A stretch of 64,000 nt of DNA, from positions 286,998,001 to 287,062,000 of the forward strand of contig OZ024741.1 of NCBI GenBank assembly GCA_964016885.1, read 5' to 3'. The position numbers and the translations under genes were made by a program. Below the pieces are notes generated by a model. It was given only the letters and a program-made list of their open reading frames with translations. It did not search any database and was not told the DNA's origin. How positions within the stretch are numbered: position 1 is the stretch's first letter; each line of letters starts with the position of its first letter. Positions 23,261 to 62,779 of this stretch are shown here, in pieces. The DNA is from Eledone cirrhosa (taxonomy: Eukaryota).

Positions 23261-23424
23261 AGGTGTATTATTGGTTGTGTAAAATGGTCCAATAAATTTA
23301 TGTTAGCAATATTAAGTTCTCCGCGCTTTTGTATATCTCCAATTCCATTCAAGGAAGCAGATAGGTGATGTAAAACGGAGTATAAGTATCAAAATGAAAA
23401 TCTGAAGGCAAGATAAAATTCCAA

Positions 23425-23513
23425 TCATTTTAATTACGACACAGGTTTCAATAAGAGACGGATCGATCGTAAAGCCATGATCAATTATCACTGTCCTCAT
23501 CAGGTGAAAATGA
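23425..23513 (-). ncRNA. Putative type I hammerhead (fold-back B, left arm)
   Basis: TCATTTT-c-AC-CTGATGA-G..T-GAA-ACCTGTGT-C/GT-aatt-AAAATGA; stem II imperfect. Confidence 0.6.
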
Positions 23514-25294
23514 ATTGTCTTCAAATTCTTGATATGAAGGAGAAAATTAGCAATGTTCACTCACAGAGTTTATTCCCTCATATGAAAATCCAGTAGTCAG
23601 AAATAGGGCGACTGCTATCAGCTTCAGTTAGGGTCATAAAACTGTCAAATCTCCATAGCTGCAAAGAACGCTGGACATTAATCAGATCTGTAGAAATACA
23701 GTCGGTCACAGTTAATGTGAGTGGGTACACACACACTCAACACCCATACACACCGGCTCGAGGTCAAAGAAAAAAAAATATATATATATACACATATCAA
23801 CACAGCATCAAACCTGTAGAACTATAGAAGGTCACAATTAGTGTGAGTGGGTACATACACACTCTCACACACATCGAAGCGATGTCATAGAAAAAAAACA
23901 ACAAATATAAGAATAAGAATATACCAACACAGCATTCACCGAAAGTTCGTTTACAAAACAACAAATGCTACATTGGTTAAATCTCAATTTGACGATGTAA
24001 ATTGGAAATATTGGGTTAACCACAGCCCCATACACATACACACACACACACAAGCAAGTAAGTTCAGTTCAGTGTTCTGTTATATATGTATAGATTGAAT
24101 TGTAACATCCGTATCTTCAAATGTATGTTATGGTATATACACATCCGTATCGTCCGAAAAAGTGTATGTCAGGTATAAACACATCCATGTGAAGAGCAAG
24201 CAATCAGTTCATATCGAACTCAGTATGTACCGCTGTCCCATTGAGAGTCCGAGTCCCCAAAACCGTGCGAGCAAGCAACCACAATATAGGCCAGCAAGGG
24301 ACGCCGTGTAGGTTTGGGTATTTGGGTTAATGTGTCAGTAAGTGCAATTTCCGGTCAAATGGGCCCTTGGGCTTTTAAGATAGGTGTTTGAGTGGTGGAG
24401 GTGTGTTATCCAACACAAAAGGTAAAGTAAATAACAAAGGATAGCAAAACCTAGAGGATGTGTGTAGGCCCATTAATGGTGTGTAAGTAATATTGTTCAA
24501 TCCGTAACTGTGAGCACTCTATGGTTAGATGATCACGGATCAAAACCTAGTGTAGTGTTCAATCGGTAGGAACGTGACCAGTCGCAACTGTGGGAACAAT
24601 ATTACTTATACACCATTAATGGGCCTACACACATCCTCTGGGTTTTGCTATCCTTTGTTATTTACTTTACCTTTTGTGTTGGATAACACACCTCCACCAC
24701 TCAAACACCTATCTTAAAAACCCAAGGGCCCATTTGACCGGAAATCGCACTTACTGACACATTAACCCAAATACACAACCCTACACGGAGCTCCTTGCTG
24801 GCCTACATTGTGGTTGCTTGCACGCACGGTTTTGGGGACTCAGACTCTCAATGGGACAGCGGTACATACTGAGTTCGATATGAACTGATTGCTTGCTCTT
24901 CACATGGATGTGTTTATACCTGACATACACTTTTTCGGACGATACGGATGTGTATATACCATAACATACATTTGAAGATACGGATGTTACAATTCAATCT
25001 ATACATATATAACAGAACACTGAACTGAACTTACTTGCTTGTGTGTGTGTGTGTATGTGTATGGGGCTGTGGTTAACCCAATATTTCCAATTTACATCGT
25101 CAAATTGAGATTTAACCAATGTAGCATTTGTTGTTTTGTAAACGAACTTTCGGTGAATGCTGTGTTGGTATATTCTTATTCTTATATTTGTTGTTTTTTT
25201 TCTATGACATCGCTTCGGTGTGTGTGAGAGTGTGTGTGTACCCACTCACACTAATTGTGACCTTCTATAGTTCTACAGGTTTGATGCTGTGTTG

Positions 25295-25352
<58 letters not shown>

Positions 25353-25604
25353 CTTTGACCTCGAGCCGTGTATGGGTGTTGAGTGTGTGTGTACCCACTC
25401 ACATTAACTGTGACCGACTGTAATCTACAGATCTGATTAATGTCCAGCGTCCTTTGCAGCTATGGAGATTTGACAGTTTTATGACCCTAACTGAAGCTGA
25501 TAGCAGTCGCCGTATTTCTGACTACTGGATCTTCATATGAGGGAATAAACTCTGTGAGTGAACATTGCTAATTTTCTCCCTCATATCAAGAATTTGAAGA
25601 CAAT

Positions 25605-25679
25605 TCATTTTCACCTGATGAGAACAGTGCTTTACGATCGATCTGTCTCTTTTTGAAACCTGTGTCGTAATTAAAATGA
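25605..25679 (+). ncRNA. Putative type I hammerhead (fold-back B, right arm)
   Basis: TCATTTTCAC-CTGATGA-GAACAG..CTGTCTCTTTTT-GAAACCTGTGTC/GTAATTAAAATGA; GUC site after 25666. Confidence 0.6.
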
Positions 25680-25735
25680 TTGGAATTTTACCTTGCCTTC
25701 AGATTTTCATTTTGATATATATATATATATATATG

Positions 25736-27129: not shown

Positions 27130-30073
27130 CTACAGGCTGATATAGAGAGAAGGCCCATTCACTCGGGCCATTCTCGCTACTTTCACCCATCTTTCATAAA
27201 ACTTGCTGGGGTAGAGCACCTCTCTCTCCATTCTGATCCTTCTTCTAATGTGGTACTTGAAAAAAAAGACCAGTTGTTGGCCGGAGAGATATGTGTCTGA
27301 CCTCAGCCCTTTCAACCTTGTCCACCATACAACTTCTTTCGCCATGGCTATCACACAGAGGAAAACCGCCTCTCCTTCGTTTTTGAAAGGGGGAGGCGGT
27401 TTGATTGTGACAATGTTCTCGGTGGTCAACCGGATTGGTCCCACCCGCGACAGTAGTCGTTCTACATAGCCCCACAGGTCAGCAACGCCCGGGCAGTGTA
27501 CGAATGCGTGTGCGACGGTTTTCTCGTCACGCACGCATCTTGGGCAGATCTTCTTCGAGGGGTCCCTACCCGGGCGCCCGTGTCTGTAGAGATGTCCCGA
27601 ACGGGTAGAGCTCCTCGGTAACATTGCCAAGCCAGGGACTTTTGGAAGTTGTCCATAGGTCCCGGGCCAAACGTCCTACCAAACAGACTGGCCAGCTCGT
27701 CTTCCTCCATGCCCAGAGCCTCTCCGAGAGCGTCGTCGCACTTACTGCGCACCAACCCTCTATAGAATGTTAAGGTTGAGTCTCCACTGATTGCCGGATC
27801 CGCTTGCCAGAGGGCCGTGAGCGCCTGGGCACATTCAATGTGCCAGTCGCCCACTTTTCTCGGTCTTTTCTTGACCCAGGATTGCAGCTCGGTGAGTGAG
27901 TCGAGTCTCGGAAAGGCTCGCCTCACAAACAGGGCCCACACCGGATGACCGGTGAGGAATACCTGGAGGTGTCGTAGCCTTAATGCGTGTCTACGCATCG
28001 TCAGCCACGGCATCCCCAGCCCTCCGTTCGAAGGGTGTTGACAGCAGATGGATCTTCTCACCAAAGGAGCCCGCTTCTTCCAAAGAAATCGGAAGAGCGC
28101 GCGTTCCATTTTGGCGAGTGTTTTCTCTGGGCAAGGCACGACGGTCAAGCGGTAGTAGATGACGGACGCTATATAAGCGTTCGCCACCTCCGCTCGACCT
28201 TTCAGGGATAGTTTGCACTCGGCCCACTTCTGGGCGAGTGCAAACACCTTGCCCGTTACCTCGTCCCAGTTTTTCTCCACCGCATCCAGGTACCGATGGT
28301 CAACCCTATCGAACGCTTTAGATTGATCCAAGTTGATCAGGACCCCACCAAAGCCGGGTTCGTTCCCTACCCTCTCTACGATGTATCGCATGAGGTGGAG
28401 GTTGTCGTGTATGGACCTGGACGGGATTGCGCATGTCTGCGCTTCTCCCACCAGGTTCCCGACGACAAGCGCCAACCTCTTCGCTAACACCTTGTCCAAA
28501 ATCTTTAACTCTGTGTTTAGCAGAGTTATCTATGTCATCCCCCTTGTTCTCGTCCTTCCTCAACAGCGTGACTACGCCCTTGGTCACAGAACTGGGAATT
28601 CTCCCGTTCTGTTGCCAGTTGCAGTAGACCGCCTTCGAGGAGACCGGAGAACAAGCCCGGCATCGCTACATAAAGTTCGTATGGTAGACCATCGAGACCC
28701 GGAGATTTGCGTTTGCCGCATTGGCTCAGCGCTTCCCCTACTTCAGCGGCTGAAATCGGCCTCTCGCAGGACTTCGCCTCCCCGTCCGAGAGCCGCGCCA
28801 GACCGTCGAGGTATGGACCGAAATCCATGGCCCCACCCGGCCCGCCGCCCCATCCCGAACAGTCGTGCAAAGCGCCGTTGAAAGGCCGTGCTCATCCACT
28901 CAGGTTCAAGGATCACGCGTCCATCCTGGTCCTTCAAAGACCGAATCGTGGACTTGTTTCCACTTTTTGCCTCTGTCACTCGGGCCCAGCTAACAGCTTT
29001 GGCTCCCTCGTTACTCAGAGCACGTATTTTACTCCTGACAACGCATCCCTCGTGCTTCGCATCAAAGAACTGGTCTAGGGCCGTTCTTGACGCCAGCACG
29101 CCGGCCACGTTGCCACTCCTAATCGCCTCTTCTACTCTGTTTGTTAATTCCCTTTCAGTTCTATTCCTATCTGATGCTAATTCCCGACTAAAACCTATCG
29201 ATTCTATTCTAATTTCTCTCTTGAGAGAGCCCCGCCACCTGTTGTTGACAATTTCCCGCGTCAAACGCTGCTTAACTAGTGTGCTAATCCGCTTACTGTA
29301 AGCTTTGTTTGTCGGTAAAGACAAGTTTAGCTTCCAGTAACCGGGTCCCTGTCTATGAGTTATATCAAGGTTGACCACTCCGGTCAACAACTTGTGATCC
29401 GAATAGTCAACCATGAACATTCGTGGACAGCTCAATATGTCCCTATCCTTATTTCTAACTAGGAACCTATCTAGGTACGACCTGAATGTTCCGCTGCGAT
29501 TACTCCACGTCCACCGTGGCACAGTCGGAAAATCCAGTCGATATCTATCGGCCAGATCAAATCGGCCGATTAATCGTTTGAGGCTGTTACACCCCCCTCT
29601 ATCGGGACATGCCCCTACATAGTCCCAACGTGCATCCAGGATACCATTCCAGTCCCCCACTAAAAGCAAGGAGCGAGACGTTCCCAGGAAATTCTCCAGG
29701 TATCGGAAGAAGTCCGGTCGCGGTGTCCCAGATGGGGCATACGCTGCCACCAGCCTGAAAGCTCCACCTTCACCACTGCCGACGTCTAAAACCACCAGTC
29801 GACCCTCCGGGTCCAGGTGAACCTTCTGTGGGGCAAGACCCAGGTATTTTCGCAGCAGAACGACAACTCCACCCCACCCCTCGGCTGACAGAGAGATGCG
29901 TAGATCTCAAAGTCGTCGAAGATGGGGGCCAGTTGGTGCTCGCTGCTGATCCTGGACTCGCAAATAACCATTACATCCACTCTGTGCGACCTGAGGTCAT
30001 TTAAGAATTTGCCCTGTTTCCAGGACATCCCCAAGCCGCGTGCATTCACACATCCAACTCTTATATTGGCCAT
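27130..30073 (-). pseudogene. L1/Tx1 ORF2 (APE endonuclease, RT, zinc finger), frameshifted, RT core deleted
   Basis: VNARGL, VAAYAP, LVGDWN, SYLDRFLV, YSDHKL, GPGYWKLN, KSPGLDGLPYELY, LAKRL, LDQSKAFDRVDH, GGLGMP, CPRC..ETVAHAFVHC; no QG..LSP or YADD motif between HRYLDAV and EKNWDEV. Confidence 0.9.
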
Positions 30074-30115
30074 GTTGGTGCTGAAGAGGTAAAAAGGAAG
30101 AGGAAAGGAAATTAC

Positions 30116-31890
30116 TTACCTCTTCGTCTCCTGGGGACCAGGCTGCACAATTTCCATGGGGGTGTTGGAAGGGTTGTTTGGTGGGGTGGTGGTTTGTGGT
30201 GGGGTGAGGACATCAGTGTGTGGTGGGATTAGGGTGTTTGGTGGGGTGTGGGTGTCTGGTGTGGGGGTGGGGAAACATCTCAATAGGACGCCGTTATGTG
30301 GTTTGGTGCAGTTGGTCCCCACATGCATTGGATGGTTCTTTTTCAAAGTTACATAGGTTTCCGTTGGGACCCTAATCATCATTAGGTGCGGTTTGTTCGC
30401 TGCGTAGGTGAAAGTGATCCCTTCGGTTTCCACCGAAGGGTTATTTTCTATCGCTTTCATCAACGTTTTATTGTTCTTGTTAATGTATGTATAGAGTTTT
30501 TGTTGTGTTGTGTTTGTTTTTGTTTGTTGTTCTTGCGGGTGTTTGCGTTTTGTAGTACGTGTTATGTTTTGGGGAGGGGCGGGTTTTTTTATTTGTGATG
30601 TTTGTTCTGTTTGTGCTGGTGGTTGTGTGTTTGTGGCATTTTTGTTAATGTGGTGCCTTTTTTTTTTCCTTTTCACCTGTTGAAAGGGTTCTCCCTCGTC
30701 GTCACTGGGTGACGTTGATACGGAGTCCTCTTCCGTGTTGTTGGGGAGGGGTATATTTTGGGGTTTTGTTGTGGTTGCTTTTGTATTTGTTTTAGGTGGG
30801 GAGGGGTTGGGTGGAACAGTGTTTTGTGTTGTTATTTTTCCGTGTTGTTGTTGTGGTGGTGGTGGTGGTGGTGGTGGTTGTGTTGTTGTGTTCGGGGTTG
30901 GCAGAAGAGCCTTTTTTTTTTACTCGTTAATTGAGGACAGGCAGCCCTCAGGTGACCCCTGCTTAAGCAGTGGTAACATGACGGCCGCCTTCCCTCCACT
31001 GAAATGTTTATATAAGTTAGCCCGTCCAGAGGCACGCGTTGTGGGATATTCGCTATTCGTTCTGGACTCATTTGCACCAGAACTTCTACGGTGGTCCCAC
31101 CAAATACACCTCCGGAGGACTTTCCTATTGAAATTATCTTGTCTTCGTCAAAGTTAATTATTCCACATAGTATCCACCAAATGTTTACATTTGGTGTGAT
31201 ACTCATTATTTTTATTCTTTGTGTCCTTTTTCCCCTGTATGTGGGGTAAAAGGTGAAGCGGGTGGACACAATGGGTGCTACCGAGTACTTTTGAGCTGTT
31301 GACTGGTTGTTCATCAGCACCGAAATGCTACCAAACAGTTTACCTTTTTGTATGAAGGTTAAGTCCTTCATTGCGTCTTTTAGAACCAGCTAATTTTCAT
31401 TTTGTGATAATTGAGCTGGTTTTCTTGTTACGTTCGATATTGTCCTGAAAACCACAGTTTTCAGGACAGCCTCTCTACGTAATTCCTGTGGAGAATTGAT
31501 GCTAAAAGCACCGTTTTCGCCAAAAGTCACGAATTGTTTTGCGTCTTGTAATAGTTGTTTAGCATTTGTTATGTCTATTGGCGTGTATAGTTCGTTTTTT
31601 TTTACGGTCTGTGCGAATGTTGTTTTGGTGTTGTCTTTCGTGTTACTGTCACTGTTGGTAATATTGGTGTTGCTATTGTTGCAGTTGTTGGTTGTGGTTT
31701 TGTTGTCATTGTTCTTGTTGTTGGTGCTGGTATTATTTGCCGGGTTTGGTCTCGCGGTTTCGATATTTTCCACGTTTTTCGATGATGCGAGGGGGGACGG
31801 CTGCAAGCTTTGTACTCCTACCTTCCCTCCACCACTTTTCTTAGTGGGCATGGCACTCATGACAGTGTGCGAGGTGGAAATGGCATCCAT
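30116..31890 (-). pseudogene. L1/Tx1 ORF1 (nucleic-acid-binding protein), disrupted
   Basis: TTFAQTVK, SVEGRRPSCYHCLSRGHLRAACP zinc knuckle, PFQQVKRKKKR; split over three ORFs. Confidence 0.8.
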
Positions 31891-32079
31891 TGCCACCAAG
31901 TCTACAGTTTTTAGATGAAAATTGAAAATTTCGCCCCAGAAAGGGGCGAAAATTTGTTGACTTAACTTCTGACGGCCAAGGCAAGGGGCTAAACCAAACA
32001 ATGTTATTAAATTGATCAATAAACTCACAGTTCTTTTTTACAACAATCCGCAAAAATCCGGAGCAAAGTAAATCACGTC

Positions 32080-36041: not shown

Positions 36042-36719
36042 TTATATATATAAAATTGGTCGTTTTGGAAGCCTCAACAATGCAGATGGGTAAATCTCCG
36101 GGTAACAGAATCAGGTGGTGATGAGAGAGATGTAAGAGGAAATGTAGAATGAGACACATAGGGTGTAGAGGAACGTAGGGAAGAGTATAAAAATAATAAC
36201 ACGAGATAGAGTTACCTTGGAAGAGATTTAATTGTCCCTCGGATTTCGCATCAATCAACTGGGGATTTTCCAAGGGGGAAGCTTTTTAGTCGAAGAGGAA
36301 CAACACCTGGCCTCTGTTGTCTGCCGTTTGTGTACAACTGAAATATTCTGTAGGGCTCACGTGCGCGCAGAATAGCTGTGGTCAGGAAAAGGTCGGGGCA
36401 GTTCTTCTTTACTAGGGTAGTGGGATGGTGCTTCGCTGTCAATCTATTATACTACTTATATTCAGTCTTTGATACTTGGCAGTATTGGAAGTCTGCCTGA
36501 TTGTTGTTTGCTGCTCGGTGGATGGTGGACACGCTATACACACAATAACAGTCGTTCAATTGCCACTGTGTGTCTGTTGTTGTTTCATTTGTTTACACCA
36601 GCCATTTCGTCTCGCTTCTCTCGGATCGGTTATTTATTTGTGGTCCTAGGAGTTTGATCCAAAGTGCTTCCTTGATTCTTAAGGTACCGACGTTGCGTTC
36701 TGTCGCTAACACTGTGACA

Positions 36720-37720
36720 ATGGGCCTTCTGTCTGCTTTGGGCTCACCCCCACTGACATCCACCAGCTCCTATCCGTCGTCGTTGACACACATTTCAATG
36801 TTCTCGACCAAACATACCGGCAGACCTCAGGGCTACCCATGGGTTCAAGCCTGTCGGGTGTGCTAACGATCTCGTACATGGACAGCCTCGAACGCAAGGC
36901 ACTCAACGCCTGCCACCCCAACGCCGTCGCCTTCTTCTTAAGATACGTGGACGACATGCTCATCCTCACATCTTCCCAGGAGATGGCGAACGGAACTTAC
37001 GAGACGTTCAGCAACACGGATGAGAATATTGACTTCAGTGTTGAACACCCCAACGACGAGGGTCCCTTGCCCACTTCGACTTCCGAATCAACATCACGGA
37101 GCAAGGAGGGATCCACACCAGCTTCCACCGCAAGTCAGCCTGCAGGGATTTCTTCGTCCACTACAAATCTGCCCTCCCTAACAGTGCTAAAAGAGGGTAC
37201 ATCACGAACGAGATCACTCGGATTAAAAACAGATGCAGCGATCCCGTGAGTGGTATCACCCATACCAAGCGGTTCCTCAGGGTGCTGGAGACGAACGGAT
37301 ACCCAGCCTCACTTACAAGCAGAGTAAGAGACACCAGACGCAAGAGGCAGAGAAACACCCAAGACAAGTGCTTCCTTAAAATCCCGCACCTGGGCGAGAA
37401 AACCACCAACGCTATCCGCAGGACCATACGGAGGGAGCGCCTCGACATCCACATGGCCCACTCGGGCCCCTCTCTACGTAGATGCCTCTCCAGGAAACAC
37501 GGGAAATTGGTTGACGCGTGTTCCCTCAGTAACTGTCTGGTGCGCCAAACGAACTGTTGCTTACGCACGTACGTTGTATACAGGGTAGAATGTGACAAGT
37601 GTAAACGACTACTACATCGGTAGCACAATGCGGCCACTACATATCCGGATCAAGGAGCACATCAATGCCAGGGCCTCGTCTTTCCGGAAACACATAACCA
37701 AATGCGGAAACAAAAACTGA
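36720..37720 (+). pseudogene. 5'-truncated Penelope/Poseidon-type RT plus GIY-YIG, frameshifted
   Basis: GLPMGSSLSGVLTISYM, FLRYVDDML, IDFSVE, LETNGYP, LKIPHLGE, VVYRVECDKC, then (shifted frame) YIGSTMRPLHIRIKEH. Confidence 0.88.
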
Positions 37721-41478: not shown

Positions 41479-43168
<1,690 letters not shown>

Positions 43169-43502: not shown

Positions 43503-43924
43503 CGAGAATGAAGAAAATACACAGGCAAGAAAAGAAAAGAAAATACAGGCTACTATATGAAGTAGTAATGGCATTCAATTAGAACAATAACAACAATTAC
43601 AACAATGCTATCAATAAATTATTTAAGGAGACCCTGACATTACTTAGGTGGGGGGTATATAATGTATCTAATGTTACGGCGTGTAAAACTAGCTGTCATA
43701 AGGCAAAATGAAGCGTTGGCATGTACAAAGTATCGTAGTGTATATCAATTTTAAATTATAAAGATAAGCTAGCTTTTACAGTCTTTCTCTTCATCTTCAA
43801 CAGTATACATGAGTGGGACCACTGTCAAAGCTAAATAGTTGTTGAGTTAATACAGAGGTTAACGAATTAATATACGCATATATTTACGCACAGGTTTGAG
43901 GATAAGCGGGATATAACTGTCACC

Positions 43925-44334
43925 TCCCAGATAGGTGCCCATTGGCGAACAGATGTCTCGATTCGAGCCTGGTGTACATGTGCACTGTCATCTCGGGTAA
44001 CTCCACCTGGAATTACATAGGATCCACCGCGGGTTCTTTTAAGAAAAGATGGTATGTGCACAGGCACTCAATGAAAAACCGTGCACTTATGGGTTCCACG
44101 ACCCTCGCCAAAAAAATATGGGAATTGAAGGACAGCAACACTAACTACAGTATCAACTGGTCGAAGTTGTCGGCTGCTAAAACCTATAGTACAGGGATGT
44201 CCCATTGCGGGCTATGTGATCTTGAGCTATTGTATATCCTTAGAAATGTTAAAAGGCTACTTAATAAGTTAGAAAGATCTATCTTCTGCAGACATAGAAT
44301 AGCCACTAAATTCATAAGATTCAAACCTCCGTGA
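43925..44334 (+). pseudogene. Neptune-type GIY-YIG endonuclease domain, 5'-truncated
   Basis: CPLANRCLDSSLVYMC..YIGSTAGSFKKRWYVH..TTLAKKIWELK..CGLCDLE..LLNK..CRH. Confidence 0.9.
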
Positions 44335-45080
44335 ATCGAACCAACATAACATAGCTTTAAATTAGGATACCTACTACCCACAGAAATATATTCATTAAGT
44401 ATACTATATCCTTCACAAGTCTATACCACACAATTGTCTGTAAGTACCTCATCTACCAACAATCTTACTCCTTCTCAGCTGCTGCCATCATTTGATCCTA
44501 AATCCTAGTTTTTCTCATTTCACTACTACAATGTTACTTTACCTTCTTTCTGCCTTAATTACAATTAGCACGCTTATCTCTTTGCATGTATGTATATTTT
44601 TGTACGAGTGTATATTGATGTGTATGTATGTGTCTATGTACACATGCATGTGTATATATGTGTATGTGTGTGTGTGTATGTGTGTGTGTGTGTGCGTAAA
44701 TATATGCGTATATTAATTCGTTAACCTCTGTATTAACTCAACAACTATTTAGCTTTGACAGTGGTCCCACTCATGTATACTGTTGAAGATGAAGAGAAAG
44801 ACTGTAAAAGCTAGCTTATCTTTATAATTTAAAATTGATATACACTACGATACTTTGTACATGCCAACGCTTCATTTTGCCTTATGACAGCTAGTTTTAC
44901 ACGCCGTAACATTAGATACATTATATACCCCCCACCTAAGTAATGTCAGGGTCTCCTTAAATAATTTATTGATAGCATTGTTGTAATTGTTGTTAATGTT
45001 CTAATTGAATGCCATTACTACTTCATATAGTAGCCTGTATTTTCTTTTCTTTTCTTGCCTGTGTATTTTCTTCATTCTCG

Positions 45081-45193
45081 CATGCTCCGAAGATCTGACT
45101 GGTTATAATTCTGTATTGGCGATCGAGTAACGCAAAATTAAGCGAATAGCGATCTCTAGACATACCAGTTCAGTGAAACAAATGTAAGCTATG
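45081..45193 (+). ncRNA. Type I hammerhead, C4 variant with long stem II insertion
   Basis: CATGCT-CCGAAGA-T-CTGA-CTGGT..ACCAG-t-TCAG-T-GAA-ACAAATGT-A/AGC-t-ATG; GUA site after 45186. Confidence 0.72.
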
Positions 45194-45399
45194 TGATTAA
45201 AAACTTTTTTGTATAGCAAACCATGTAAACCTTCTTTCCTGATTTATATATATATATATATTAAGAAACGGCTGGATACAAAGATAAGTTCACATACAAC
45301 GACCAGACTAACAACACAAAGTTACACAATCAACATAAGACTTTATCAACACCTATTGACAATAATGCCCCCCCCCCTCCTCCCCCCACTAGAGTAACT

Positions 45400-46430
45400 A
45401 CCACGCAAGAACCACCACTAGCCGACAGGCCAGGCAGTGACATATACTACTGCAAAGGAGGTAAAGCCATACCCGCCTGCCCCTCTAATGACATGATGCC
45501 TAGCACACAAATAGGTATTAATAGGGACCGAAGATTAAACGGTACAAACCAAACCAGAACACGCAAACAGTTATGCCTGACCTCAACACACCCACAAACA
45601 AGCTGTAGCAACCAGACTAAACATCTTAGGACACAGAGTAGAACCATGACATGGTACAACGCCCCGTACTCGATGAACGTTGTTACCAATGTCCCAGAAG
45701 CATTCTTCAATCCTTGACCAATCCTTTCCACCCACACACAAACATCACACGCCCTTTAACAGACACACAGTAAAATTCTCCTTCTCCACATCACCCAATC
45801 TAGCTGACACTATAGCATACACTAATAGAATCAAAATACCAAAACATAAACAAGCACCCCAAGCAATCACTAACACAACGCAAAATAATACCACACAGAC
45901 AATACGCAACAATGCTCAACAGCAAGCCAACTCCAACCAAAATGAGACTAACCAGCAACATACCAATAATGCAGCCGCCTCTAGGTGTAACTGCAAAAAG
46001 CCAGAGAAATACCCACTGAGCGGAGAGTGCCGCATCAGGAACATTGTATACTAGTGCGATGTCATGGTTGGGCGCAATGAATACACATATATAGGCGCAA
46101 CCTCGACAACCTTTAAGGAGTGAGTGTAAACCACAGTAACTCTTTCAACCACAGACCTATGCGCTCCAAAACCAGACTGGCCGATTTGATCTGGGACCTC
46201 AAGTATAGGAACCCGAAATACCAGATCAAATGGTCCGTAAGGAGACGCGAGGCCCAACATTCCACCGGAGGAAGCCACTGCAGGTTGTGCCTGGCAGAAT
46301 TTGTAGAGATCATTAAATTCTAATCAGCTATTAATTTGAGATCGGAAATTTTCGTAAACTACCGACACACCAGAAAGCATACATTCTCCGCCATGGTATT
46401 CGGTCTGACAGACCAAAACGTTACCACCTG
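45400..46430 (+). pseudogene. 5'-truncated Neptune-type linker plus GIY-YIG, decayed
   Basis: WYNAPYSMNVVTN, FNRHTVKFSFSTSPNL, CNCKKPEKYPLSGECRIRNIVY, YIGATSTTFK, NHSNSF..TRLADLIWDLK, CRLCLAE. Confidence 0.88.
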
Positions 46431-46881
46431 AACTCAAACAACGATAGACACAACATCTTAGTAACTACTACAATTATTATTATCACATCTTATCAACTTT
46501 ATCATCGTCCCCATTACCACCGTTACATTCATTACCAATGTTGTTCTTGTTAATATTATATTGTATTCTTTATCATGTCCCCCATCACAAAACATACCAC
46601 CATGTATTCACCACTCTCCCCCATACCAACACGTACCACACACACAAGAGGCACACATAAAACAGCAGCATCCTACACATTACCACAATTAATTTCATCA
46701 CTTCCATTTGTATCACCAATTTCATCCCCGTTATCACTAACATGACACTTATTTCCCAACACATTTTCACCCTTCTCATATCCTAAATTTATTTTACCAC
46801 CATATATTCCTATGCGATTGTTATCTAGACACACTACTAGCGAGATATACATATATATATATATATATATAGAGAGAGAGT

Positions 46882-48376
<1,495 letters not shown>

Positions 48377-48553: not shown

Positions 48554-48617
<64 letters not shown>

Positions 48618-48982
48618 ATTTTAGTACAGCATTGACGAAGCTTTAGAATACGGCCAAGCTAGCGTATATGCATAATCGGTCTGTAGCTTGAGCACTCGGA
48701 TGAGGAAAGACCCCAGAGTAATAACATTACGTTCAGACAGCTTAGCAAATCAGATATAGCGGTCCGCAGTCCAGCCGCATTACCAGAGCAACGAAAATAC
48801 AGGACCCAGGAATAGAGCTGGTCAATTCCGTATGGTCAATATTAATGTAATAATATGGAGAGTACTCAACGTAAAGCAGTTCAACCGTCTTTGTTTTTGT
48901 AGTTGGTGGTGCTATTACGGAGTTAAATATTATAATGAAATGACAGCAGGCTGGACCTGTGTAAATCCTTGAAAGGTTTATT

Positions 48983-49040
48983 ATACTATGGTCATTTCAA
49001 TGACCGGGTTCCTTATGAATCCGGTGATATCATCAGGTAT
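48983..49040 (-). ncRNA. Type I hammerhead (left arm of E)
   Basis: ATAC-CTGATGA-TATCACCGG..CCGGTCATT-GAA-ATGACCAT-A/GTAT. Confidence 0.75.
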
Positions 49041-49944
49041 TAGAAATATAATAAGTGAATGTAATAGATAAAATCCATGGGGCTGAAAATCAAAGACCCG
49101 AGGACGACCGCCATCCAGCATCTTCGACCTTTGCCGGTCGCCCTCAAGTGACGTGGCTAAAGCTTACAGTGTGCTACTACCGGTCAAATAAAGGAAAACA
49201 GAAAGGGATAGGAACATGAACATAAGTCAGCGTTAATATCATGCCACAATAATGCCAATCTTCTGCTCACACATTATAACATACAGACCCCCACTATATT
49301 TACCTCTGCTAAGATACGGATCCCTTTGAAAATATTTTTTTCGCGCTATTCCTGGCCTGGCTGTAGTCTGACATTAATATCGATCTTTCTTCCTCTTTCT
49401 TTCTATCTTTCTTCTTGTAGCCATCAACCCTGACTTTTCTTCTTCTTCCTTTTCTTCTTCTCTTCCCCCTTCTTTCTGTCTTTCTCCTTGTGGCATGATA
49501 TTAACGCTGACTTATCTTCCTCCCCCTATTTGTTTGCCTATATTTGACCGGTAGTAGTTGTTAAGATACGGGTCCCTTAGAATAAATTTTTTTCGCGACA
49601 TTCCTGGCCTGACTGTAATACCGACCTTTCCTCCTCTTTCTTTCTGTCTTTCTTCTTATAGCTGACATTAACCCTGACTTCTCTTCTTCTTCCTTCTCTT
49701 CCTTCCCCCTTCTTCTCTCTTCTTTCTTTCTTTCTTTTTTCTTGTGGCATGATATTAACGTTGACTTATTTTCCTATCCCTTTCTGTTTTCCTTTATTTG
49801 ACCGGTAGTAGCACACTGTAAGCTTTAGCCACGGCACTTGAGGGCGACCGGCAAAGGTGGAAGATGCTGGATGGCGGTCGTCCTCGGGTCTTTGATTTTC
49901 CGCCCCATGGATTTAATCTATTAGATTCACTTATTATATTTCGA

Positions 49945-50002
49945 ATACCTGATGATATCACCGGATTCATACGGAACCCGGTCATTGAAATGATCATAGT
50001 AT
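49945..50002 (+). ncRNA. Type I hammerhead (right arm of E)
   Basis: ATAC-CTGATGA-T-AT.ACCGG..CCGGT.AT-T-GAA-ATGATCAT-A/GTAT; palindromic stem III; AUA site after 49998. Confidence 0.82.
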
Positions 50003-50052
50003 AATAAACCTTTCAAGGATTTACACAAGTCCAGCCTGCTGTCATTTCATTA

Positions 50053-50128
<76 letters not shown>

Positions 50129-50339: not shown

Positions 50340-51970
50340 GTATGGATATGTGTGCATGTGTGTGTGCCTCTGTGGGTGTGTACACATGTATATTCTCTAT
50401 AGTACAAATATCCCTTTAAGGCTATAGATAGTTTACACCAAAGCCCCATCCCCAACCTAGGCTAACCTACTTTCCTTATCTTTTTTCCTTTTTATTTTCA
50501 TTTTCATTTATTCCTCTTCGGCAAGCCGCTAACCAGCAGAACCCCCTCCCCCTAGTGCAGTACCGCACTTCTTCATCTCCTATCACGCATAGCCCATAAC
50601 CACTTCCAAACCCATACCCACCACCTCCGCCTCACCACATACATGCCCCAATGTCTATGAAACAGCCAAACCTCCCCCAAAACTCACACCAGGCACCGCT
50701 CTCCACCATCACCACCACCTCGTCATTATGAGTATCCACCCCCACCCCCACTTATCACACACGCCAAAACATTCCTTATAGCAAATCCACCAATCAAAAC
50801 AACAGAAAATGACCACTGTAATTGAATGTGAAACGTTACAGACATTTCTAAGTTCTACAGGTTCATTCTGTCATTACCACAACAGAAGTCCGACGAGCTT
50901 TTGATTCCAGAGTCGGGCAAGATTGTTAAAGATCGAAGCTTGAGCTGATTAATGGCGAAACGTAATGAAGGCATCGTCCTTTTATTATCATATTTACATT
51001 CTGCTTTGTTCTACACCGCTTTACAGACAGGAAACTACGCATCGACTGCTCACTCGGGTGAAGCTGCAGTAACTGCATGTTACACTCCCTATATATATAT
51101 ATGAATATGTGTATGTATATATATATATATGTGTAAGTGTGTGTATATATGTACACACACACACACACATACACACACATACACACACACATATATATAT
51201 ATATATCCTGTCGCGATCAGAGGTTATTCACTATTTCAACAGGTTTCTTATTAGGTATACCATATCCCGTGAGTGCTTTCAAATTCCACAGTTTTCTTGT
51301 TCTTTCTAGATCGAATATTATTTGCTAACACATACATTTACATATATGTTTACACCCAGACGTTGATATGTTTGATGGAAGGCTTTCTTGCATGTATTTA
51401 TTGACTTTCTTTGGTTAGTTATATTCCATTAAACCAATTCTGATATTCTTTTAGTCTCAGGAGGTTATGGCACCATTTTAATGTGAGCGGTCTCTTTTTC
51501 TACATCACTAGGTTTGCTTCCAATGCGATTAATTTCGCTGTTAATGTAGAAAGCTTTATAGAAATAAATCTTCGATTTGAAAGAGTGAAATAAATCTTTA
51601 CAAACAAGAGTCTTATAGACATTGATTTATTTTTCAACTGGACGTCGAGCAAGAACAAAATAATTCTTTCTCATTCATTTGTTTATTTGATGTTGAATAT
51701 ACTATGGCAATGTAGATTATCAATATGAAGAAAGAGATATTGCACATATGTTTAAGGTCAGCAGAGAACGAGAGAGGGAGAGATGGGGGTAGAGGGAGAG
51801 ATGGGAGAGAGAGTGAAAAGAGAGAAAGAGGTGGAAGAGTCTCACACACACAAACAGATAGGCAGACAGATGCACGAACCCACATAGAGACACGTACACA
51901 CACATACGCACACACACACACATAGTTCAACGTTAAAAAAGACTAAAACAGAAAACTACACAAAATGTCA

Positions 51971-52087
51971 ATATAGAAATGACTTCTACAGGACTAGAAC
52001 TGTTTCATTCGCATGAAATCATCAGGAATGATCTGATGATTTCATACGAATGAAACAGTTCTAGTCCTGTAGAAGTCATTTCTATAT
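51971..52087. repeat. Near-perfect hairpin of about 55 bp made of two divergent hammerhead remnants
   Basis: Right arm CTGATGA-TTTC-atac-GAAT-GAAACAGTTCTAGTC-CTGTAGAAG; left arm is its reverse complement; 5' strand of stem I is missing. Confidence 0.75.
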
Positions 52088-52183
52088 AGAATACACACAG
52101 CTCCCTGTTTCTCCCAAAATGTTTATTATTTTATTGCTGTGACTTGTTCTTTCTTTTTTTCCGTGGTTGCTATTTACTCTTTC

Positions 52184-54697: not shown

Positions 54698-54749
<52 letters not shown>

Positions 54750-55040
54750 AAACAAAATGAAAACGAAATTTCATTTCTCACTCTTAGTATGGCACTTACT
54801 TAAATGTAAGTATGCATGTATACGTACATACATATATGTATACAGACGTACAGTAGCATGCACATATATATATATACATATATACATACATATGCATACA
54901 GGTACACATACATATATGCACGTATCAGTTTAGCGGCGCTAACGTCGCTTTGTTCGTTTGTAAACAAACTGAACAGCCTGAATTTATGCCATACGGTGTT
55001 AAGGCAACCACGTCACCTTTTTGTTCAACACTGACACAGG

Positions 55041-55085
55041 AACGATGTACTAGTTTCAAGCTTGTTAGCTATCATCAGCACCGTT
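55041..55085 (-). ncRNA. Minimal type I hammerhead; further copies at 55503, 55965 and 56427
   Basis: Reverse complement of 56858-56902. Confidence 0.85.
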
Positions 55086-56776
55086 TACCCATCTGCCAGA
55101 TAGTTGAACGTTCGAAAGTATATACTTTCCTTATGAAAATTAACGGCTGAGCAGCCTAATTTGCATATTGAGTGAGTTAAATCGGTCAGGCATACCGAAA
55201 ACGATAAATTGAAACAAAATGAAAACGAAATTTCATTTCTCACTCTTAGTATGGCACTTACTTAAATGTAAGTATGCATGTATACGTACATACATATATG
55301 TATACAGACGTACAGTAGCATGCACATATATATATATACATATATACATACATATGCATACAGGTACACATACATATATGCACGTATCAGTTTAGCGGCG
55401 CTAACGTCGCTTTGTTCGTTTGTAAACAAACTGAACAGCCTGAATTTATGCCATACGGTGTTAAGGCAACCACGTCACCTTTTTGTTCAACACTGACACA
55501 GGAACGATGTACTAGTTTCAAGCTTGTTAGCTATCATCAGCACCGTTTACCCATCTGCCAGATAGTTGAACGTTCGAAAGTATATACTTTCCTTATGAAA
55601 ATTAACGGCTGAGCAGCCTAATTTGCATATTGAGTGAGTTAAATCGGTCAGGCATACCGAAAACGATAAATTGAAACAAAATGAAAACGAAATTTCATTT
55701 CTCACTCTTAGTATGGCACTTACTTAAATGTAAGTATGCATGTATACGTACATACATATATGTATACAGACGTACAGTAGCATGCACATATATATATATA
55801 CATATATACATACATATGCATACAGGTACACATACATATATGCACGTATCAGTTTAGCGGCGCTAACGTCGCTTTGTTCGTTTGTAAACAAACTGAACAG
55901 CCTGAATTTATGCCATACGGTGTTAAGGCAACCACGTCACCTTTTTGTTCAACACTGACACAGGAACGATGTACTAGTTTCAAGCTTGTTAGCTATCATC
56001 AGCACCGTTTACCCATCTGCCAGATAGTTGAACGTTCGAAAGTATATACTTTCCTTATGAAAATTAACGGCTGAGCAGCCTAATTTGCATATTGAGTGAG
56101 TTAAATCGGTCAGGCATACCGAAAACGATAAATTGAAACAAAATGAAAACGAAATTTCATTTCTCACTCTTAGTATGGCACTTACTTAAATGTAAGTATG
56201 CATGTATACGTACATACATATATGTATACAGACGTACAGTAGCATGCACATATATATATATACATATATACATACATATGCATACAGGTACACATACATA
56301 TATGCACGTATCAGTTTAGCGGCGCTAACGTCGCTTTGTTCGTTTGTAAACAAACTGAACAGCCTGAATTTATGCCATACGGTGTTAAGGCAACCACGTC
56401 ACCTTTTTGTTCAACACTGACACAGGAACGATGTACTAGTTTCAAGCTTGTTAGCTATCATCAGCACCGTTTACCCATCTGCCAGATAGCTGCATAAATT
56501 CAGGCTGTTCAGTTTGTTTACAAACGAACAAAGCGACGTTAGCGCCGCTAAACTGATACGTGCATATATGTATGTGTACCTGTATGCATATGTATGTATA
56601 TATGTATATATATATATGTGCATGCTACTGTACGTCTGTATACATATATGTATGTACGTATACATGCATACTTACATTTAAGTAAGTGCCATACTAAGAG
56701 TGAGAAATGAAATTTCGTTTTCATTTTGTTTCAATTTATCGTTTTCGGTATGCCTGACCGATTTAACTCACTCAAT

Positions 56777-56784
56777 ATGCAAAT
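56777..56784 (+). promoter_or_regulatory. Octamer motif ATGCAAAT, one per satellite unit
   Basis: Exact match about 75 nt upstream of each hammerhead; also at 20-27, about 42754 and about 47775; function inferred only. Confidence 0.35.
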
Positions 56785-56857
56785 TAGGCTGCTCAGCCGT
56801 TAATTTTCATAAGGAAAGTATATACTTTCGAACGTTCAACTATCTGGCAGATGGGTA

Positions 56858-56902
56858 AACGGTGCTGATGATAGCTAACAAGCTTGAAACTAGTACATCG
56901 TT
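56858..56902 (+). ncRNA. Minimal type I hammerhead; 13 copies every 462 bp up to 62402-62446
   Basis: AACGGTG-CTGATGA-T-AGCT-aaca-AGCT-T-GAA-ACTAGT-A/CATCGTT; 7-bp stem I (one G-U), 4-bp stem II, palindromic stem III; GUA site after 56895. Confidence 0.87.
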
Positions 56903-59900
56903 CCTGTGTCAGTGTTGAACAAAAAGGTGACGTGGTTGCCTTAACACCGTATGGCATAAATTCAGGCTGTTCAGTTTGTTTACAAACGAACAAAGCGACG
57001 TTAGCGCCGCTAAACTGATACGTGCATATATGTATGTGTACCTGTATGCATATGTATGTATATATGTATATATATATATGTGCATGCTACTGTACGTCTG
57101 TATACATATATGTATGTACGTATACATGCATACTTACATTTAAGTAAGTGCCATACTAAGAGTGAGAAATGAAATTTCGTTTTCATTTTGTTTCAATTTA
57201 TCGTTTTCGGTATGCCTGACCGATTTAACTCACTCAATATGCAAATTAGGCTGCTCAGCCGTTAATTTTCATAAGGAAAGTATATACTTTCGAACGTTCA
57301 ACTATCTGGCAGATGGGTAAACGGTGCTGATGATAGCTAACAAGCTTGAAACTAGTACATCGTTCCTGTGTCAGTGTTGAACAAAAAGGTGACGTGGTTG
57401 CCTTAACACCGTATGGCATAAATTCAGGCTGTTCAGTTTGTTTACAAACGAACAAAGCGACGTTAGCGCCGCTAAACTGATACGTGCATATATGTATGTG
57501 TACCTGTATGCATATGTATGTATATATGTATATATATATATGTGCATGCTACTGTACGTCTGTATACATATATGTATGTACGTATACATGCATACTTACA
57601 TTTAAGTAAGTGCCATACTAAGAGTGAGAAATGAAATTTCGTTTTCATTTTGTTTCAATTTATCGTTTTCGGTATGCCTGACCGATTTAACTCACTCAAT
57701 ATGCAAATTAGGCTGCTCAGCCGTTAATTTTCATAAGGAAAGTATATACTTTCGAACGTTCAACTATCTGGCAGATGGGTAAACGGTGCTGATGATAGCT
57801 AACAAGCTTGAAACTAGTACATCGTTCCTGTGTCAGTGTTGAACAAAAAGGTGACGTGGTTGCCTTAACACCGTATGACATAAATTCAGGCTGTTCAGTT
57901 TGTTTACAAACGAACAAAGCGACGTTAGCGCCGCTAAACTGATACGTGCATATATGTATGTGTACCTGTATGCATATGTATGTATATATGTATATATATA
58001 TATGTGCATGCTACTGTACGTCTGTATACATATATGTATGTACGTATACATGCATACTTACATTTAAGTAAGTGCCATACTAAGAGTGAGAAATGAAATT
58101 TCGTTTTCATTTTGTTTCAATTTATCGTTTTCGGTATGCCTGACCGATTTAACTCACTCAATATGCAAATTAGGCTGCTCAGCCGTTAATTTTCATAAGG
58201 AAAGTATATACTTTCGAACGTTCAACTATCTGGCAGATGGGTAAACGGTGCTGATGATAGCTAACAAGCTTGAAACTAGTACATCGTTCCTGTGTCAGTG
58301 TTGAACAAAAAGGTGACGTGGTTGCCTTAACACCGTATGGCATAAATTCAGGCTGTTCAGTTTGTTTACAAACGAACAAAGCGACGTTAGCGCCGCTAAA
58401 CTGATACGTGCATATATGTATGTGTACCTGTATGCATATGTATGTATATATGTATATATATATATGTGCATGCTACTGTACGTCTGTATACATATATGTA
58501 TGTACGTATACATGCATACTTACATTTAAGTAAGTGCCATACTAAGAGTGAGAAATGAAATTTCGTTTTCATTTTGTTTCAATTTATCGTTTTCGGTATG
58601 CCTGACCGATTTAACTCACTCAATATGCAAATTAGGCTGCTCAGCCGTTAATTTTCATAAGGAAAGTATATACTTTCGAACGTTCAACTATCTGGCAGAT
58701 GGGTAAACGGTGCTGATGATAGCTAACAAGCTTGAAACTAGTACATCGTTCCTGTGTCAGTGTTGAACAAAAAGGTGACGTGGTTGCCTTAACACCGTAT
58801 GGCATAAATTCAGGCTGTTCAGTTTGTTTACAAACGAACAAAGCGACGTTAGCGCCGCTAAACTGATACGTGCATATATGTATGTGTACCTGTATGCATA
58901 TGTATGTATATATGTATATATATATATGTGCATGCTACTGTACGTCTGTATACATATATGTATGTACGTATACATGCATACTTACATTTAAGTAAGTGCC
59001 ATACTAAGAGTGAGAAATGAAATTTCGTTTTCATTTTGTTTCAATTTATCGTTTTCGGTATGCCTGACCGATTTAACTCACTCAATATGCAAATTAGGCT
59101 GCTCAGCCGTTAATTTTCATAAGGAAAGTATATACTTTCGAACGTTCAACTATCTGGCAGATGGGTAAACGGTGCTGATGATAGCTAACAAGCTTGAAAC
59201 TAGTACATCGTTCCTGTGTCAGTGTTGAACAAAAAGGTGACGTGGTTGCCTTAACACCGTATGGCATAAATTCAGGCTGTTCAGTTTGTTTACAAACGAA
59301 CAAAGCGACGTTAGCGCCGCTAAACTGATACGTGCATATATGTATGTGTACCTGTATGCATATGTATGTATATATGTATATATATATATGTGCATGCTAC
59401 TGTACGTCTGTATACATATATGTATGTACGTATACATGCATACTTACATTTAAGTAAGTGCCATACTAAGAGTGAGAAATGAAATTTCGTTTTCATTTTG
59501 TTTCAATTTATCGTTTTCGGTATGCCTGACCGATTTAACTCACTCAATATGCAAATTAGGCTGCTCAGCCGTTAATTTTCATAAGGAAAGTATATACTTT
59601 CGAACGTTCAACTATCTGGCAGATGGGTAAACGGTGCTGATGATAGCTAACAAGCTTGAAACTAGTACATCGTTCCTGTGTCAGTGTTGAACAAAAAGGT
59701 GACGTGGTTGCCTTAACACCGTATGGCATAAATTCAGGCTGTTCAGTTTGTTTACAAACGAACAAAGCGACGTTAGCGCCGCTAAACTGATACGTGCATA
59801 TATGTATGTGTACCTGTATGCATATGTATGTATATATGTATATATATATATGTGCATGCTACTGTACGTCTGTATACATATATGTATGTACGTATACATG

Positions 59901-62676
59901 CATACTTACATTTAAGTAAGTGCCATACTAAGAGTGAGAAATGAAATTTCGTTTTCATTTTGTTTCAATTTATCGTTTTCGGTATGCCTGACCGATTTAA
60001 CTCACTCAATATGCAAATTAGGCTGCTCAGCCGTTAATTTTCATAAGGAAAGTATATACTTTCGAACGTTCAACTATCTGGCAGATGGGTAAACGGTGCT
60101 GATGATAGCTAACAAGCTTGAAACTAGTACATCGTTCCTGTGTCAGTGTTGAACAAAAAGGTGACGTGGTTGCCTTAACACCGTATGACATAAATTCAGG
60201 CTGTTCAGTTTGTTTACAAACGAACAAAGCGACGTTAGCGCCGCTAAACTGATACGTGCATATATGTATGTGTACCTGTATGCATATGTATGTATATATG
60301 TATATATATATATGTGCATGCTACTGTACGTCTGTATACATATATGTATGTACGTATACATGCATACTTACATTTAAGTAAGTGCCATACTAAGAGTGAG
60401 AAATGAAATTTCGTTTTCATTTTGTTTCAATTTATCGTTTTCGGTATGCCTGACCGATTTAACTCACTCAATATGCAAATTAGGCTGCTCAGCCGTTAAT
60501 TTTCATAAGGAAAGTATATACTTTCGAACGTTCAACTATCTGGCAGATGGGTAAACGGTGCTGATGATAGCTAACAAGCTTGAAACTAGTACATCGTTCC
60601 TGTGTCAGTGTTGAACAAAAAGGTGACGTGGTTGCCTTAACAGCGTATGGCATAAATTCAGGCTGTTCAGTTTGTTTACAAACGAACAAAGCGACGTTAG
60701 CGCCGCTAAACTGATACGTGCATATATGTATGTGTACCTGTATGCATATGTATGTATATATGTATATATATATATGTGCATGCTACTGTACGTCTGTATA
60801 CATATATGTATGTACGTATACATGCATACTTACATTTAAGTAAGTGCCATACTAAGAGTGAGAAATGAAATTTCGTTTTCATTTTGTTTCAATTTATCGT
60901 TTTCGGTATGCCTGACCGATTTAACTCACTCAATATGCAAATTAGGCTGCTCAGCCGTTAATTTTCATAAGGAAAGTATATACTTTCGAACGTTCAACTA
61001 TCTGGCAGATGGGTAAACGGTGCTGATGATAGCTAACAAGCTTGAAACTAGTACATCGTTCCTGTGTCAGTGTTGAACAAAAAGGTGACGTGGTTGCCTT
61101 AACACCGTATGGCATAAATTCAGGCTGTTCAGTTTGTTTACAAACGAACAAAGCGACGTTAGCGCCGCTAAACTGATACGTGCATATATGTATGTGTACC
61201 TGTATGCATATGTATGTATATATGTATATATATATATGTGCATGCTACTGTACGTCTGTATACATATATGTATGTACGTATACATGCATACTTACATTTA
61301 AGTAAGTGCCATACTAAGAGTGAGAAATGAAATTTCGTTTTCATTTTGTTTCAATTTATCGTTTTCGGTATGCCTGACCGATTTAACTCACTCAATATGC
61401 AAATTAGGCTGCTCAGCCGTTAATTTTCATAAGGAAAGTATATACTTTCGAACGTTCAACTATCTGGCAGATGGGTAAACGGTGCTGATGATAGCTAACA
61501 AGCTTGAAACTAGTACATCGTTCCTGTGTCAGTGTTGAACAAAAAGGTGACGTGGTTGCCTTAACACCGTATGGCATAAATTCAGGCTGTTCAGTTTGTT
61601 TACAAACGAACAAAGCGACGTTAGCGCCGCTAAACTGATACGTGCATATATGTATGTGTACCTGTATGCATATGTATGTATATATGTATATATATATATG
61701 TGCATGCTACTGTACGTCTGTATACATATATGTATGTACGTATACATGCATACTTACATTTAAGTAAGTGCCATACTAAGAGTGAGAAATGAAATTTCGT
61801 TTTCATTTTGTTTCAATTTATCGTTTTCGGTATGCCTGACCGATTTAACTCACTCAATATGCAAATTAGGCTGCTCAGCCGTTAATTTTCATAAGGAAAG
61901 TATATACTTTCGAACGTTCAACTATCTGGCAGATGGGTAAACGGTGCTGATGATAGCTAACAAGCTTGAAACTAGTACATCGTTCCTGTGTCAGTGTTGA
62001 ACAAAAAGGTGACGTGGTTGCCTTAACACCGTATGGCATAAATTCAGGCTGTTCAGTTTGTTTACAAACGAACAAAGCGACGTTAGCGCCGCTAAACTGA
62101 TACGTGCATATATGTATGTGTACCTGTATGCATATGTATGTATATATGTATATATATATATGTGCATGCTACTGTACGTCTGTATACATATATGTATGTA
62201 CGTATACATGCATACTTACATTTAAGTAAGTGCCATACTAAGAGTGAGAAATGAAATTTCGTTTTCATTTTGTTTCAATTTATCGTTTTCGGTATGCCTG
62301 ACCGATTTAACTCACTCAATATGCAAATTAGGCTGCTCAGCCGTTAATTTTCATAAGGAAAGTATATACTTTCGAACGTTCAACTATCTGGCAGATGGGT
62401 AAACGGTGCTGATGATAGCTAACAAGCTTGAAACTAGTACATCGTTCCTGTGTCAGTGTTGAACAAAAAGGTGACGTGGTTGCCTTAACACCGTATGGCA
62501 TAAATTCAGGCTGTTCAGTTTGTTTACAAACGAACAAAGCGACGTTAGCGCCGCTAAACTGATACGTGCATATATGTATGTGTACCTGTATGCATATGTA
62601 TGTATATATGTATATATATATATGTGCATGCTACTGTACGTCTGTATACATATATGTATGTACGTATACATGCATA

Positions 62677-62766
<90 letters not shown>

Positions 62767-62779
62767 TATATGTAGATAA

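Follow-up and report, generated by a model that had tools for sequence, protein, structure and literature searches.

The window analysed here, a stretch of 64,000 nucleotides from Eledone cirrhosa (contig OZ024741.1), contains a non-coding repeat of about 7.9 kb, which Tandem Repeats Finder and a motif scan resolved into two back-to-back arms of a 462-bp unit carrying a hammerhead ribozyme motif. With a probability of roughly 80%, we regard this repeat as one two-arm retrozyme insertion in a TA microsatellite that was likely made in trans by the reverse transcriptase (RT)-endonuclease of a Penelope-like element (PLE). The family itself is a young and very abundant retrozyme of the type without long terminal repeats (non-LTR). 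As movers of animal retrozymes PLEs were proposed in 2020 and backed by co-occurrence and homology in 2026, and the question of whether the circle serves as template belongs to the same discussion. In the present genome, dozens of retrozyme loci bear the insertion signature of PLEs, and the near-absolute pairing rule of the two ends is found again in an autonomous PLE of this genome that is apparently active.

Two arms with fixed and paired ends

An earlier note on this stretch had described 17 hammerheads in a single tandem array of 462-bp units between 54748 and 62679. A sequence scan confirmed the unit and the number of motifs, but not the single array: Tandem Repeats Finder divides the region into two separate 462-bp arrays, which are oppositely oriented, with four motifs on the minus and 13 on the plus strand. 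The outer ends of both arms adjoin (TA)n, and the layout is as follows.

54700..54747: left (TA)n microsatellite, the likely insertion target
54748..56489, minus strand: left arm, 3.8 units with four hammerheads, RNA sense on the minus strand; its 5' end falls at unit position 407 and its 3' end at about 301-302, the 'long' site
55041..56471, minus strand: the four left-arm hammerheads, CUGAUGA starting at 56464, 56002, 55540 and 55078; predicted cuts after 56434 - n*462
56490..56491: inversion junction, two bases (CT) separating the 5' ends of both arms
56492..62679, plus strand: right arm, 13.4 units with 13 hammerheads; its 5' end falls at unit position 59 and its 3' end at 240-241, the 'short' site
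56858..56902, plus strand: first right-arm type I hammerhead, predicted cut after 56895; cores of this arm at 56865 + n*462, the last one at 62409
56896..57357, plus strand: reference unit, position 1 being the first base past the predicted cut
57018..57127, plus strand: TA-rich internal tract (unit 123-232); individual insertions can be told apart by its length allele
57132..57147, plus strand: small hairpin CUUAC/GUAAG, its loop containing the short 3'-end site (unit 240-246)
57136..57201, plus strand: 'tail' of about 60 nt, spanning short to long site
unit 301-306, plus strand: long site, a U-rich stretch downstream of a second hairpin
57231..57287, plus strand: best-kept block outside the ribozyme (unit 336-392); contains ATGCAAAT, which lies at unit 344, plus an inverted near-copy
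62680..62771: right (TA)n microsatellite

The unit has a GC content of about 36-37% and, as noted before, no credible open reading frame (ORF), the longest ATG frames comprising 38 aa in sense and 72 aa in antisense direction and both traversing the TA-rich tract. Comparison of 15 full window units gave 12 identical to the reference and three with one substitution each (57878, 60188 and 60643). One change, 59G>A, is common to two window units five units apart; a five-unit period was rejected because the change is missing at the next expected unit, and of the 14 genome-wide copies of the respective 36-mer the other 12 are singletons.

Copies were counted in the 3.0 Gb genome by exact pattern matching. 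The 41-nt ribozyme core is present 10,032 times compared to 0 for the reversed control, excluding chance, and a 78-mer typical of the young subfamily 3,923 times, with copies spread over many contigs. Older subfamilies gave 46 exact pattern matches, and in an older subfamily the 3' ends lie at homologous sites. The label retrozyme therefore holds, as dispersed tandem non-coding units are found with one conserved and covarying type I hammerhead each. A satellite amplified in place was rejected, since the arrays are short and dispersed and show fixed ends and the inversion, and the alternative label of the earlier note, self-cleaving satellite, is too weak for a locus that we take to be a single retrotransposition product with PLE-type ends, a feature it had missed.

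Arms were mapped in the window and 61 genome stretches, mostly the first-listed places on one contig, leading to 41 back-to-back pairs and 39 single arms; one convergent pair of neighbours represents two different insertions. An alignment end at unit position 228-256 was classed as short and one at 286-308 as long, which together cover 52 of 462 positions, and 108 of 121 arm 3' ends fell inside one of these ranges. The true junctions are mostly at 240-246 and mostly at 301-306, about 60 nt apart and far from the cut site. If both ends of a two-arm insertion could be classed, short was combined with long in 31 of 33 cases (P=7e-8); inspection of the two exceptions revealed a long and a short end divided by an expanded TA tract (L055) and the loss of one end (L027). 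Additional mixed pairs were present at L077, L084/85, L186 and L187. If the template were a cleaved linear monomer, 5' ends should accumulate at the cut. They are instead scattered, compatible with a uniform distribution (Kolmogorov-Smirnov P=0.09), and a distance of 10 nt or less from the cut was seen for one of 121, although lone arms stopping at the cut go unseen with a search pattern that spans it.

The same pairing was found in two further groups of elements. Sister family B, with a unit of 466-469 bp (L176:5117-5585; G000:C1:5738000-5752700), 9,643 pattern matches and 269 of 490 columns identical to the window unit, showed short and long ends in 14 of 14 resolved pairs (27 loci, three pairs unresolved), and one of its arms has about 31 units. 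A Neptune-type PLE was detected in the flank of L046 by its RT and GIY-YIG frame and assigned from a CxxxxCxxC linker and CCHH, using the clade motifs in PMC8557442. It also uses two end sites in (TA)n, about 40 nt apart, and all 14 resolved two-arm insertions (30 loci) are mixed, two of the ends having been classed by eye. Of 20,620 candidates, 150 were scored, all at 96-100% and many as 784-aa open frames. This very young element, of which many 784-aa frames are intact, is represented by L232:2662-5013. Hammerheads are said to be a general feature of the Neptune clade, yet none was evident in the seven loci scanned. Flanks of (TA)n are common to the retrozyme and to Neptune-type and Hydra-type elements of this genome. 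A third family, C (L031:7050-9500), has a 310-bp unit with the palindrome ACGCGU, and its locus consists of a short arm on the minus strand and seven units on the plus strand, with TA at both ends and a tail of about 35-40 nt. For families A (that of the window), B and C a small hairpin is predicted that has the short site in its loop.

Twin priming by an enzyme of the long interspersed element (LINE) type, known to give 5' inversions in L1, would also yield opposed arms, and LINE-like RT frames do exist in the window. The second priming site is, however, fixed and not variable, poly(A) is absent, and an autonomous PLE follows the same pairing rule. A palindrome from DNA fold-back or an assembly error is difficult to reconcile with a layout repeated at dozens of loci with differing junctions; moreover, contigs of public run X2, which lie outside this assembly, include the long-site/TA junction as a loose end at 57201 continuing into AT repeats. 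We thus consider all these origins highly improbable.

The hammerhead and its predicted dimeric fold

All window hammerheads share the motif CUGAUGA...GAAAC-UA-GUA with stem I AACGGUG/CAUCGUU, stem II AGCU/AGCU, the palindrome ACUAGU and the triplet GUA, exactly as described before, and the cut after 56895+n*462 was confirmed as the predicted position in the plus arm. Older copies with A-U in place of the stem I G-U pair, also reported earlier, were located at 41877 (minus) and 42840 (plus). The claim of a complete type I hammerhead is correct for the core and stems I and II; stem III is a single A-U pair closed by CUAG, and position 10.1-11.1 is U.U instead of the usual G10.1-C11.1. An older subfamily has C.A at this position, family B the canonical G-C. 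Rfam, to which the earlier note had pointed for hammerhead models, gave no match for the motif at gathering score, the best ribozyme match being Hammerhead_HH9 with 18.5 bits (E 0.17, cut-off 52); matches of the repeat to microRNA families were discarded as noise from TA repeats.

For covariation, eight representative copies from families A (young and older subfamilies), B and C were aligned without gaps. The catalytic core (C3 U4 G5 A6 N7 G8 A9, G12 A13 A14 A15.1, U16.1 and H17) is invariant in all eight rows, with A, U or C at N17. In total, 96.1% of the cells are paired and 10 of 16 pairs are altered on both sides, with stem I being 100% paired and changed on both sides in five of six pairs, and stem II in three of five. 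The covariation score was reached by 0 of 500 shuffles, a figure that is not a probability because the rows are related and come from three families. The change from ACUAGU to ACGCGU in family C retains the palindromic character. A compensatory change within stem II was also observed between family B subfamilies. Stronger conservation of the core relative to the remaining unit, as expected in the earlier note, was only borderline by identity between young and old subfamily (39/45 for the motif, 230/307 for the rest; P=0.056), but is supported by the covariation.

Stem III has a pairing probability of 0 in the lone motif. In a natural stretch with two motifs the double-hammerhead fold lies 1.1 kcal/mol above the minimum and two single motifs 16.9 kcal/mol above it. 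With its palindromic stem III of 1 bp, cleavage is therefore predicted to take place as a dimer, and the lone hammerhead within a monomer is predicted to be inactive; the window motif is not a self-sufficient monomer ribozyme. Such dimer-dependent hammerheads have been described for amphibian repeats and PLEs (PMC7229834, PMC4209133). Folding of the 462-nt unit brings its termini together by stem I (z = -7.65, partly owed to the TA-rich hairpin), and monomers or circles of 462 nt are a plausible product of the array on the basis of these models. A hairpin following the cut (56925-56940) has Watson-Crick pairs in older copies where the young family has two G-U pairs, in line with selection on RNA structure beyond the ribozyme.

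The block at unit 336-392 is identical between young and old subfamily at 54 of 57 positions, having been chosen after the fact, and may be an internal promoter or protein site. One family B copy is without the ATGCAAAT-type octamer. Work cited in PMC2220036 describes an snRNA-type promoter in newt satellite 2; a tie of the octamer to this promoter type is a lead only. The retrozyme has the reverse octamer 81 nt upstream of the hammerhead, to be compared with ATTTGCAT, which precedes a hammerhead-like motif at 485 by 117 nt in a broken Hydra-clade PLE (485-3215 of the window, minus strand; RWRA, DKT and CxCx5C; terminating in TA).

Proposed template, enzyme and course of insertion

The TA-tract allele of the window insertion has 74 copies genome-wide, compared to 3,923 of the adjacent 78-mer, and 18 of the 74 are located in this insertion, on both arms; several other loci also carry it on both arms. 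In 13 of 16 young insertions that have the tract in both arms an allele was common to the two, compared to 29 of 240 mismatched pairs, and the commonest allele was the same in 11 of 16 compared to 24 of 240 (11/14 and 9/14 without the two insertions chosen for that allele). Private substitutions were found across both arms at L073, L044 and L040. As a rare private allele is usually present on both arms, one RNA template is indicated.

From these data the following course can be proposed. The arrays would first be transcribed. Second, adjacent hammerheads are predicted to pair via ACUAGU into a double hammerhead and to release 462-nt monomers, the ends of which are kept together by stem I and could be closed to a circle by a host ligase. 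Third, as the end positions suggest, the PLE enzyme would nick both strands of a (TA)n tract and begin two cDNAs inside the unit rather than at the cut. One would start from the short site and the other from the long site, 60 nt further downstream. Fourth, according to the shared alleles both cDNAs would copy one template or sister transcripts of one locus, with copying passing many uncut hammerheads and stopping at random. Joining of the truncated 5' ends would, fifth, result in outward-pointing arms of 4 and 13 units. A more specific version, tentative and in our opinion rather doubtful, has a dimeric PLE enzyme on one circular retrozyme RNA, with two start sites 60 nt apart, one per target strand, and both rolling. 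The short and long rule would then be a footprint left in the genome by the asymmetry of the PLE dimer; the retrozyme itself would amount to a minimal trans-acting cassette for PLE insertion into (TA)n, having no sequence homology to its helper.

An uncut linear multimeric transcript as template would change only the second and fourth step; the hammerhead would be little used in mobilisation and circles would be a by-product. At L042/43 three distinct units (442T, 466 bp and 458 bp) follow each other in identical order in both arms, and such mixed-unit insertions are not obtainable from a single monomer circle. Hammerhead mutants of an Anolis PLE were without effect on insertion in vitro (PMC11167929), and the stem II base of the window motif is weak. 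Most young insertions, in contrast, are uniform across all units of both arms including private substitutions (L073, L044 and L081), arms reach a considerable length (13 units in the window, about 31 in family B) for an RNA that could be cut in each of its units, and the ribozyme is maintained with compensatory changes across families. We see this template as a serious contender that stays somewhat short of even odds. Lengthening of one or two inserted units by later unequal exchange in the manner of a satellite, the route favoured by Li et al. (2026), is unlikely as the general explanation. It would fit the variants in some but not all units of the longest arms (59G>A twice in the window, L042/43, L071), and these make some later duplication likely. 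Yet both inverted arms are often multimeric with common private alleles, many dispersed young loci have 2-15 units and identical fixed ends, and exchange accounts for neither the ends nor the inversion. Taken together, a circle may have served as template for some insertions and a multimer for others, followed by a certain amount of duplication.

Several observations weigh against a PLE-driven, ribozyme-based insertion. The mapped places derive mostly from one contig, 8 of 41 pairs have an end outside both ranges (due to edges, nested inserts or deletions), L080 has a genuine off-site end at 283, and a target-site duplication is unreadable within (TA)n. The U.U at 10.1-11.1 may weaken cleavage, this pair being broken in five of the eight family rows and the sole broken one of the alignment, the covariation rests on three families with rows that are not independent, and only one of nine Xenopus dimers was cleaved in Li et al. 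(2026). Units are mixed in L042/43, L071 and L039. The tail of about 60 nt in the retrozyme differs from that of about 40 nt in the Neptune-type element, and the unit showed no homology beyond TA repeats to 20 Hydra-type loci or to one Neptune-type 3' region. The helper is therefore a candidate only; the genome contains further PLE families beyond those compared.

Comparison of the 5' flanks of the 39 single arms with nine library sequences also revealed no homology, and a search by a degenerate hammerhead pattern that retained loop 2 returned 52 scattered matches; the 20 inspected comprised some mutant retrozyme copies and otherwise unassigned sequences, but no clear helper. The long site resembles the Neptune short site in being U-rich, which was discounted as low-complexity, and a single 470-nt contig (run X1) as well as 462-back joints were rejected as signs of circles, since tandem DNA yields these too. 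At L047:3900-5126 a retrozyme arm meets a Hydra-type element of opposite orientation at the 3' end of the latter, with no TA between them; this one case could be a chimeric insertion pointing to the helper, or a deletion.

Elsewhere in the window, older family members show the same two-arm layout inside TA tracts (41580-43080, 46881-48281 and 1-288), with a duplicated junction and a poly(T/A) insert in the copy at 46881-48281. Further diverging pairs of hammerhead-like motifs, at 49036 (minus) and 49949 (plus) within 48600-50060, at 23503 (minus) and 25615 (plus) within 23270-25720, and at 52025 (minus) and 52033 (plus) within 51960-52090, are probably ends of additional PLE-type families. A broken LINE with endonuclease and RT matches and more broken PLE frames are found at 27130-32037 (minus strand), 36710-37650 and 43906-46054.

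Relation to known retrozymes and Penelope-like elements

Metazoan non-LTR retrozymes are known from many invertebrates, with PLEs named as likely helpers (Cervera and de la Pena, 2020, PMC7229834). Like these, including axolotl Rtz331/Rtz353 and newt satellite 2, the window family consists of tandem non-coding units with a GC content below 45%, one type I hammerhead per unit and thousands of copies. Its stem III resembles HHR_Amex1 with a single pair and a palindromic tetraloop, and its U.U at the stem II base is shared with axolotl HHR_Amex2, which still cleaves weakly. The 462-bp unit exceeds the 170-400 nt RNAs and 150-450 bp repeats reported there, and back-to-back arms, fixed paired ends or (TA)n targeting are not mentioned in the available text. 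Expression and circles were demonstrated for those retrozymes, whereas the window family is known here from genomic DNA. Li, Clavereau and Pollet (2026; bioRxiv 10.64898/2026.07.22.740005) draw the same link of non-LTR retrozymes to PLEs from co-occurrence and pLTR homology in vertebrates, leaving the mechanism open with a leaning to local amplification; tails and inverted arms are not mentioned in the available main text. In the window family the evidence is the insertion signature, and no pLTR homology was detected. A literature search, with most subscription papers and Repbase/Dfam outside its coverage, gave no account of this family or of a paired-end rule in a retrozyme; the family may already be entered in Dfam/Repbase as an unknown repeat or PLE fragment.

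Endonuclease-containing (EN+) PLEs of the Neptune, Hydra and Naiad clades form inverted truncated copies with an optional tail at one end and a bias for (TA)n or microsatellites (Craig, 2021, PMC8557442; Arkhipova, 2013, PMC3846280; PMC8969392), and in vitro a PLE used two internal RT start sites with both strands being extended (Frangieh, 2024, PMC11167929). The window family shares 5'-truncated tandem copies, an inverted 5' copy, the tail at one end, the (TA)n bias and two predicted internal starts. It differs by the missing ORF, by arms of up to 13-31 whole units and by a tail of about 60 nt (about 69 nt in family B) instead of 30-40 nt. With the short RNA, its two predicted start sites, the target and the intact frames of a candidate enzyme, the question can be taken to the existing in vitro assay. 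The value of the family thus lies in an insertion signature that links a retrozyme to priming of the PLE type and opens both helper and template to testing. It is likely a new family of metazoan non-LTR retrozymes, an already known class, with clear genomic evidence of PLE-type mobilisation.

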